From contig OZ024742.1 in NCBI GenBank assembly GCA_964016885.1, forward strand, positions 130,944,001 to 131,008,000: DNA of 64,000 bases, read 5' to 3'. Source of the DNA: Eledone cirrhosa (taxonomy: Eukaryota). The notes below the pieces were generated by a model, which did not search any database, was not told the origin of the DNA, and was given only the letters and a program-made list of their open reading frames with translations. This document shows positions 47,620 through 48,205 of this stretch, in pieces; position 1 is the stretch's first letter, and each line of letters begins with the position of its first letter. Made by a program: the position numbers and the translations under genes.

Positions 47620-48205
47620 ATGAAATACTGTGTGCTTCTTGCTCATAATAATTTCTATACTTGCAGTATTTTTCTCTATATTTTATTACATATATTTACC
47701 CAAACTGCGATTCTGTGTTTTTTTTCTCTCTCTCTTACTGCTCCCCTATTCTCTCTGTTTCTCCTACCTTCTTTCGCCCCCTCTGTCATGTCAGTTAACT
47801 CTTCCTCACACTTTCACTCATTCACTGTTTCTCCTCTCTTCATTTCATCCTGTACACCACGAAGGCTATTTTTCTCTCTTCTCACATGGCCATCGTTCGT
47901 GTCAGGTCTTTTTTCTAAAGCGCTCATATATTCATCTAGCTTATGCTAAACAGAATAATTTTGAAGCTTGTTTCTTTCCCCTACGGTTAGCTATACTCTT
48001 TGTTGTTCTCCTGTCTCACTCGCTTTACGCGTTTCAATTGTCCTAATAACTTATTTTGGTTATTATTGCACCGACGTGAGGTATATGATTTTTAATGCAA
48101 TGAAATATCTATGATCGTCGGCAAATCACTGATGAGGGACTCATTTTATTACATGTTATCCATGTGCTACCTGCAGTATTTTTCTCTATATTTTATTACA
48201 TATAT
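47620..48205 (+). mobile_element. Pyrimidine-rich non-coding element with a ~38-bp direct repeat, (TA)n-flanked
   Basis: 47658-47695 recurs at 48168-48205. Confidence 0.55.
48071..48142 (+). ncRNA. Candidate non-circularly permuted hammerhead
   Basis: CCGACG..AGGUA-UA-UGAUUU-UUAAUGCAAU-GAAA-UAUCU..CGUCGG-C-AAAUCA-CUGAUGA-GGGACU. Confidence 0.62.

Follow-up and report, generated by a model that had tools for sequence, protein, structure and literature searches.

The stretch of DNA analysed here, 64 kb of Eledone cirrhosa referred to below as the window, is microsatellite-rich and, besides LINE-type reverse transcriptase (RT) frames, holds fragments of Penelope-like RT and GIY-YIG sequences and the remains of a mariner element. 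Within it, an insert of approximately one 510-nt unit carries what the original prediction described as a permuted hammerhead (48071..48142), and the questions that this locus raises are whether the motif is a hammerhead at all, which strand provides its stem II and what kind of element has carried it there.

The core elements that had been reported, CUGAUGA (48129-48135), GAAA (48102-48105) and an AUA triplet (48083-48085), are all present at these positions, and they provide the CUGANGA, GAAA and NUH sequences of a hammerhead core, with its U16.1-A15.1 pair. They are distributed over three blocks of the plus strand: block S (48079..48091) contains the 5′ strand of stem III (48079-84), the triplet and the 5′ strand of stem I (48086-91); block G (48096..48110) contains the 3′ strand of stem II (48096-48101), GAAA (48102-05) and the 3′ strand of stem III (48105-10); and a shortened block C (48123..48135) contains the 3′ strand of stem I (48123-28) followed by CUGAUGA (48129-35). 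Stem I (48086-91/48123-28) is, as had been claimed, a perfect 6-bp helix with 6/6 Watson-Crick pairs, and stem III (48079-84/48105-10) has six pairs, one of them G.U. The “extended stem III” of the original prediction exists as pairing, although it consists of two helices, stem III and a GC-rich helix IV (48071..48076 with 48116..48121, plus strand, 6/6, -8.6 kcal/mol), connected via a 2x5 internal loop; the 3′ strand of helix IV is one base away from stem I. By analogy with the hammerhead core, cleavage is predicted after 48085, and the unit would have one cleavage site, as proposed.

The helix that had not been named is stem II. The bases 3′ of CUGAUGA provide a single G.U for it (-0.2 kcal/mol), whereas a fourth block located upstream of helix IV, block P (48065..48070, plus strand), pairs 6/6 by Watson-Crick with 48096-48101 (-4.5 kcal/mol) and stands in for positions 10.1-10.6. 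Consequently, the backbone would be open between A9 and G10.1, all three helices (I, II via P, and III) abut the core, and the strands of the RNA follow one another as P, IV, S, G, IV′ and C. The chance of finding a P-like complementary 6-mer at most 2 nt from helix IV is approximately 7e-4. The span originally drawn does enclose the core, but it leaves out the strand at 48065-48070, and the motif is neither an ordinary circular permutation nor the published type SGC, since its stem II comes from the upstream block.

In an ordinary type-SGC hammerhead, as described in Eckert 2023, stem II would be made by the bases after CUGAUGA, and P would be incidental or a regulator. The motif does have the S-G-C block order of this type, and the N-GGA that follows the core in three window copies and in the octopus elements Obim and Ovul (see below) could yield one or two pairs at 10.1-10.2. 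Nevertheless, its block C is not unbroken, only one G.U is in register, the best tail duplex reaches the -0.2 kcal/mol given above, and the descriptor in the available part of that paper wants CGAAA and a tail stem of 2-6 pairs, neither of which is present, so that we consider this explanation very improbable. A stem II formed by the bases 3′ of CUGAUGA was ruled out with or without a bulge, as only the G.U is available; a type-I reading with a downstream GAAA was not found for the 48129-48135 core, and a k-turn-like reading of the tail and the GAAA strand was dropped because the bulge is on the wrong side. The N-G-G-A sequence itself is kept after the core (48136-48140, 29708-29704 on the minus strand, 30549-30553 and two Octopus Naiads) although P makes stem II, and it might mark a junction for strand exchange or take part in a tertiary contact.

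A G10.1-C11.1 pair is favoured in hammerheads, without being absolute; in this motif it is replaced by A-U. Stems I and III are weak (-2.3 kcal/mol each), and nested folding, which cannot represent the pseudoknotted state, buries CUGAUGA in a local hairpin of the 510-nt unit and gives no significant z-score for any of five fragments (-0.94 to +0.51). Additionally, P (48063-48070) pairs with the terminal repeat of the insert (48170-48180) at -6.7 kcal/mol, versus -4.5 with its stem II partner, which is possibly an off-switch or a matter of chance.

Chance expectation was evaluated by searching all six block orders over 128 kb (both strands), with at least 6 pairs in stem I and at least 5 in stem III. 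Two matches were obtained in the window, both S-G-C: the motif of the 510-nt unit and a second one at 30498, which is the independent match, as the thresholds had been picked once the former was known. In 300 dinucleotide-preserving block shuffles, there were 0 S-G-C matches and four of any other order. With looser stems (at least 4 pairs in both I and III), the same two window matches were recovered, with a shuffle mean of 0.010 (one or more matches in 5/500 shuffles, two or more in 0/500), and the full four-helix descriptor matched once, in the 510-nt unit, and in 0/500 shuffles; the setting with at least 4 pairs in stem I together with P and IV skipped the motif at 30498 owing to how the search range was defined. 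At the gathering score, Rfam found nothing in the 64 kb, missing also the type-I motifs of the window. Down to E 10, it returned five matches, none of them to a hammerhead model, and around the three motifs of the window its output was microsatellite or hairpin noise and one snoRNA at E 7.2. A search of GTDB genomes with the family pattern gave 0 prokaryotic matches. The overlap of this C/D snoRNA model with the motif, and the fact that no Rfam family reaches the gathering score, might point to mere coincidence or to a sequence resembling a C/D-box snoRNA (CUGA and AUGA boxes), but E 7.2 is noise, the shuffles gave 0/300 and 0/500, and the relatives described below have covarying helices; the probability of this explanation is practically negligible. 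The motif is, in agreement with the permuted core originally proposed, a hammerhead core in non-circular S-G-C order, well above chance, and by this order and the missing Rfam match it is separated from hammerhead types I, II and III.

Two relatives of the motif are found in the window. The first, E2, is a 106-nt copy located between two TA runs on the minus strand (29653..29759; nhmmer E 2.9e-06; blastn 65% over 86 nt versus the 510-nt unit). It has GAAA and CUGAAGA at spacing identical to that of the 510-nt unit, and stem I is kept with 4/6 pairs changed, three of them on both sides; both block P and the cut triplet are absent. The 5′ end of E2 lies a single base ahead of the predicted cut, and its 3′ end is homologous to that of the 510-nt unit (106 versus 114 nt). 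Under uniform truncation, a 5′ end at most 1 nt from the site is expected in an estimated 0.6-3% of cases, a figure that refers to one case, and this placement could alternatively have arisen via target microhomology, as AUA is contained in TATA. The second relative, E3 (30474..30548, plus strand), is a full four-block motif with a GUC triplet and a predicted cut after 30498. Its layout is that of the 510-nt-unit motif in a differing sequence (6/6 pairs in stem I, 8/8 in stem III, 6/6 in helix IV and 4/6 in a decayed stem II via P), and it has G-C at 10.1-11.1. Stem I covaries across the three window copies.

The same arrangement is found in Naiads, a clade of Penelope-like retroelements. According to the available part of Craig 2021 (PMC8557442), Naiads insert in (TA)n, have 30-40 bp tails and can reach several percent of a genome (7.8% for Naiad_Plae); canonical hammerheads are reported absent from them, eight are flagged as having a “half core” with GAAA “on either side”, and those of cephalopods are described as long inactivated remnants. 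In the supplement of that paper, four CUGANGA spellings were searched and the motifs were read by eye, with nothing computed; the places covered were 60/62, 30/43, 23/23 and 25/25, the remainder lying beyond the Naiad file, and motifs split over printed lines may escape such a search. By this reading, 10 of the 54 Naiad consensi, from four phyla, have the P-S-G-C form in their 3′ region: one Clytia family, Acropora Amil, Aacu and Anas, Morbakka Movir-2, Pomphorhynchus Plae, Eulimnadia EuTe, Octopus Obim and Ovul, and Euprymna Esco. These motifs, which the paper does not identify as complete hammerheads, are located in the 3′ UTR, 70-400 nt before the end, and their stems I, II, III and IV have differing sequences that, by eye, are still complementary. 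Stem II via P has 6/6 pairs in seven of them, 5/6 in Aacu, four pairs in Clytia and 4/5 in Euprymna, and the first base of P is a G opposite 11.1 in 10/10, which makes G-C in nine and G.U in Esco. The bases after the core are unable to supply G10.1 in 8/10; that is, the tail cannot pair with 11.1 where P can, which also argues against type SGC in the portion of the supplement covered. By eye, E3 and the octopus Naiads Obim and Ovul have 13/14 equal bases around the core, and the match of the 510-nt-unit motif to them is structural only.

Not all Naiads follow this pattern. Among the records covered, no P-S-G-C motif was seen by eye in the bivalve families or in Adux, Skow-1, Ppla and Dcar, whose 3′ ends were covered completely, and in 4_Dst the core is present with an ambiguous P-S-G-C assignment. 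In a spider-part record (supplement part 16), the blocks run S-G-C and a local hairpin precedes GAAA, which may represent a further variant, and four Darwinula-zone records (parts 17-19) have a core in common, in longer surroundings. Intact type-CSG motifs, in which block C is unbroken and the interaction helix is long, are found in six records within a block of eight nematode Naiad families, the headers being available for two. If such a type-CSG motif were opened at A9/G10.1 and its ends were joined, P-S-G-C would be obtained, and we infer from this that helix IV would be the counterpart of the interaction helix between stems I and II. That homologues keep the motif, as the original prediction required, is thus observed both in the window and among Naiad consensi, and P-S-G-C is, with good probability, the ribozyme type of these retroelements, present here as a four-block pseudoknotted hammerhead in a 510-nt non-autonomous unit.

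Regarding the element itself, the 510-nt period and the non-coding unit originally described were both found. The left copy of the terminal repeat (47658..47689, plus strand) is identical at 31/32 positions to the right copy (48168..48199, plus strand), which is the 3′ end of the insert and lies 114 nt past the predicted cut. The longer repeat initially given (47658-47695 = 48168-48205) matches at 37/38, but its last 6 nt are TA run, leaving the 32-nt repeat as the informative part; similarly, the repeat is close to the motif, as proposed, but begins 32 nt past CUGAUGA instead of ~35 nt, and the insert does exceed one unit, by less than the 1.1-mer suggested (about 1.06 units). Between the repeats, the body (47696..48060, plus strand) is 72% pyrimidine, occurs as a single copy in the window and has two long frames and no Pfam domain. 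On its 5′ side, a scrambled junction (47619..47657, plus strand) opens with an inverted copy of a segment of the repeat (11 pairs), as seen by folding, and (TA)n target arrays flank the whole on the left (47560..47618) and on the right (48200..48284), in keeping with the Penelope- or retrozyme-type insert in (TA)n that had been anticipated. E3 also belongs to a unit (29819..30645, plus strand), with an 804-nt period, a 23-nt terminal repeat (21/23), TA arrays on both sides and a body that is 74% pyrimidine and has no sequence relation to that of the 510-nt unit. Both units follow a common plan (TA, short repeat, pyrimidine-rich body, motif, repeat, TA) and, as the cut site is internal in both, each insert spans the cut junction intact.

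Tandem copies, which the original prediction proposed to look for, were not found, as neither tandem nor dispersed copies of the unit body exist within the 64-kb window, and linkage to an RT-GIY-YIG frame failed likewise, with these domains in 0/12 frames neighbouring the unit. As no domain is present in the unit or in these frames, the element is non-autonomous at most. The (TA)n insertion, the 30-40 bp tail and the inverted 5′ piece are all characteristic of Naiads, although other PLE clades share them and they are not diagnostic, and the Naiad frame (N-terminal GIY-YIG, CxC motif, C-terminal RT) is absent. Non-LTR retrozymes, for their part, have a type I hammerhead per unit and arrays of at least two units, and the insert has neither, being 1.06 units long and single within the window.

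The insert might instead be the 5′-truncated 3′ end of an autonomous Naiad-like element, its 32-nt repeat being a target site duplication or the trace of an insertion into the end of an older copy, with no small circular RNA involved. The position of Naiad motifs in the 3′ UTR, 70-400 nt from the end in the records covered, the resemblance of the pyrimidine-rich bodies to Naiad 3′ UTRs, the recognition of its own tail by the Penelope endonuclease (work cited in the available part of PMC11167929) and the missing tandem copy in the window would all fit such an origin. By contrast, the homology of E2 extends into the repeat at 48168-48199, which argues that the repeat is element sequence and not a target duplication; both long inserts (2/2) end at 1.03-1.06 units with family-specific repeats; and unit body, not ORF sequence, follows the left repeat. 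Truncation is consequently regarded as unlikely. Most likely, the 510-nt unit is a non-autonomous Naiad-type retroelement copied from circular or tandem RNA, and its sequence suggests that it may behave as a retrozyme served by a Naiad.

Several other elements surround the two units. Three long palindromic inserts in TA arrays, at 46927-47559, 29204-29510 and 43027-43338, carry minimal type-I hammerheads, one per arm (cores at 47423+/47063-, 29420+/29294- and 43205+/43160-), which is typical of inverted PLE ends, and both four-block units lie in TA “nests” beside such inserts. Further minimal type-I candidates are found on the minus strand at 43508, 8336 and 7645, giving nine in the window, where Rfam at the gathering score found 0; those at 43508, 8336 and 29420 have the same stem I, and the stem III that they share is palindromic. 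No hammerhead core was found in a near-perfect palindrome of 600 nt (96%) at 30738-31341, which is also located in TA arrays. Two copies of a broken Penelope-like element, ~92% alike (31756-36626 and 53866-56601), have RT before GIY-YIG, long flanking inverted repeats and no CUGANGA core near their ends, and their nearest database proteins are 40-60% identical. A link between the 510-nt unit and their ORFs (~33200-36135 minus, 54054-55288 plus) was rejected, given this domain order, a distance of 6-12 kb and the lack of CUGANGA near the ends; the connection to Penelope-like elements that had been proposed thus holds indirectly, to the Naiad clade, and not to these ORFs.

The remaining repeats are of other kinds. 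Four related LINE-type copies with endonuclease, RT and a zinc motif (444-5815, 9708-12403, 12555-17634 and 24480-25422) stand head to tail with (TATC)n between them, including one unbroken 1153-aa frame at 2238-5699, and the best named match of the long RT frame is from the octopod Argonauta hians (67% identity, second among the 120 matches listed). A ~190-nt dispersed repeat, which we take to be SINE-like, has about six copies, 80-94% alike (22422, 28382, 32230, 44332, 46152 and 61620), and ARAGORN found no tRNA in it; one copy breaks a mariner/Mos1-type transposase remnant at 43814-44945 (minus). Additionally, there are a 14/28/84-nt minisatellite (59833-60431), a diverged inverted relative of the DNA beside it (48521-48778) and a 2.2-kb CAA-rich higher-order array (39458-41705).

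How would such an RNA work? Core nucleotides, four helices, covarying relatives and unit architecture give the four-block hammerhead its support at the level of sequence. It is highly probable that the family cuts itself, and for the copy in the 510-nt unit the prospect of cutting after 48085 is evenly balanced. In the latter case, the insert could be a dead relic, of the ancestry described here but with cutting lost, as its A-U at 10.1-11.1 and its competing folds would suggest, together with the long inactivity ascribed to cephalopod Naiads in the available part of Craig 2021; yet all core bases and the four helices are intact, the repeat copies differ at 1/32 positions, suggesting a young insert, and the U at 11.1 is common to the 510-nt unit, E2 and Esco and thus looks like a family trait. 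Loss of cutting is therefore a real possibility, though the less probable one.

In the mechanism that we propose for a functional motif, the hammerhead would correspond to a type-CSG non-circular permutation whose backbone is interrupted between A9 and G10.1. Tandem or read-through transcripts would be cut to unit length, and circles might be formed from these by ligation. The (TA)n DNA would be nicked by the RT/GIY-YIG protein of a Naiad at another locus, and copying would begin ~110 nt downstream of the cut site. With a cut linear RNA as the template, run-off at the cut would produce an insert such as E2; with a circular or uncut tandem template, the RT would pass the junction and stop just beyond one round, as in the 510-nt unit and E3. 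We consider this scheme of nicking, priming and two kinds of template reasonably probable. In the available part of Frangieh 2024 (PMC11167929), PLE reverse transcription starts inside the RNA, leaves a tail and uses AT-rich targets; for the anole PLE, insertion in vitro did not need cleavage, and no reads ended at the site.

The geometry of the motif adds a further condition. P and the 3′ strand of stem I exit from the base of the III+IV hairpin and must pair in its loop, which makes a swapped dimer of two copies the more likely arrangement. Crude estimates, with constants for A-form rise and strand reach taken from general knowledge, give a required ~45 Å versus a reach of at most 36 Å in the 510-nt unit, and 50 versus at most 49 Å in E3; by hand, the reach is enough in Obim and Ovul and 10-20 Å short in Plae, EuTe and Acropora. 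Alternatively, the same four-block ribozyme could act as a single molecule, if helix IV or the far part of stem III opened or the internal loop made a U-turn. The marginal reach in E3 and the sufficient one in Obim and Ovul are compatible with this, as is the co-transcriptional cutting of Eckert SGC and CSG RNAs from single-copy templates in the accessible part of PMC10085705, whose authors remark on the same geometric puzzle; the shortfall of ~10 Å in the 510-nt unit and of 10-20 Å in Plae, EuTe and Acropora, and the fact that, of all the helices, IV has the highest stability and is preserved through compensatory substitutions, speak against it. We rate the single molecule as plausible but the weaker option. 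As the geometry is mixed across families, the swapped dimer, in which cutting would need tandem copies, is given about even odds. According to Cervera 2014 (PMC4209133), PLE hammerheads often have an additional base between 9 and 10.1 and are active as dimers. If a dimer were required, the lone 1.06-unit insert would be a product and not a source.

More broadly, Naiads of cnidarians, acanthocephalans, arthropods, molluscs and nematodes may process their RNA with overlooked pseudoknotted hammerheads, mostly with four-strand cores open at A9/G10.1 that would be active only when two copies exchange strands, which would provide an intrinsic check for tandem transcripts, while octopods would also carry small non-coding circles parasitising the system; we put forward this general proposal tentatively, with a little less than even confidence. 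Were it true, the scheme of six orders, regarded as complete, would be extended by a seventh hammerhead architecture, and in the best-studied small ribozyme even the most conserved junction could stay covalently open. These would be the first non-circularly permuted ribozymes from animal genomes within the literature searched, with most subscription papers outside its scope; in the same literature, no non-circular or split-core hammerheads were found in Naiads or animal genomes, “type-SGC” occurs in one paper only, and the part of Forgia 2023 (PMC10162972) covered has no permuted form. It would also address the puzzle of how Naiads thrive without canonical hammerheads, which in the text available was the basis for the view of ribozymes as mere passengers, and six examples from genomes would be added to the published CSG form (two sequences in the portion covered), which would then be linked in evolution to the split form.

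Compared with known systems, as far as the accessible parts of the respective papers describe them, the motif is closest to Eckert types SGC and CSG. Eckert 2023 (PMC10085705) assumes stem II directly after CUGANGA and derives six block orders from this assumption, and its permuted forms come from metatranscriptomes and metagenomes, the only case in the genome of a known organism being a doubtful bacterial GCS. Both share the non-circular order, two pseudoknots, the short linker from stem I to stem II, the same core and an additional helix that connects stems I and II at their far ends; the 510-nt-unit motif differs in that its block C is split at A9/G10.1 and in that it is located in a retroelement of an animal genome, and the four-block P-S-G-C order falls outside the six permutations. 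PLE minimal hammerheads (PMC4209133) resemble it in context, in the likely need for two copies and in the tolerance of irregularity at 9/10.1, but they belong to type I (C-G-S) and their palindromic stem III is tiny, in contrast to the full-length stem III and the non-circular order found here. Non-LTR retrozymes (10.64898/2026.07.22.740005) are likewise non-coding units of a few hundred nucleotides with one hammerhead, a proposed PLE-driven mobility and common monomers, but they have type I hammerheads and tandem arrays, neither of which characterises the 510-nt unit within the window. Finally, although the unit lacks the ORF with N-terminal GIY-YIG and RT and is 510 nt long in contrast to the 3.4-4.4 kb of Naiads (PMC8557442), it shares with them the (TA)n targets, the 30-40 bp tail, the inverted 5′ piece and the four-block motif found in 10/54 of their consensi.
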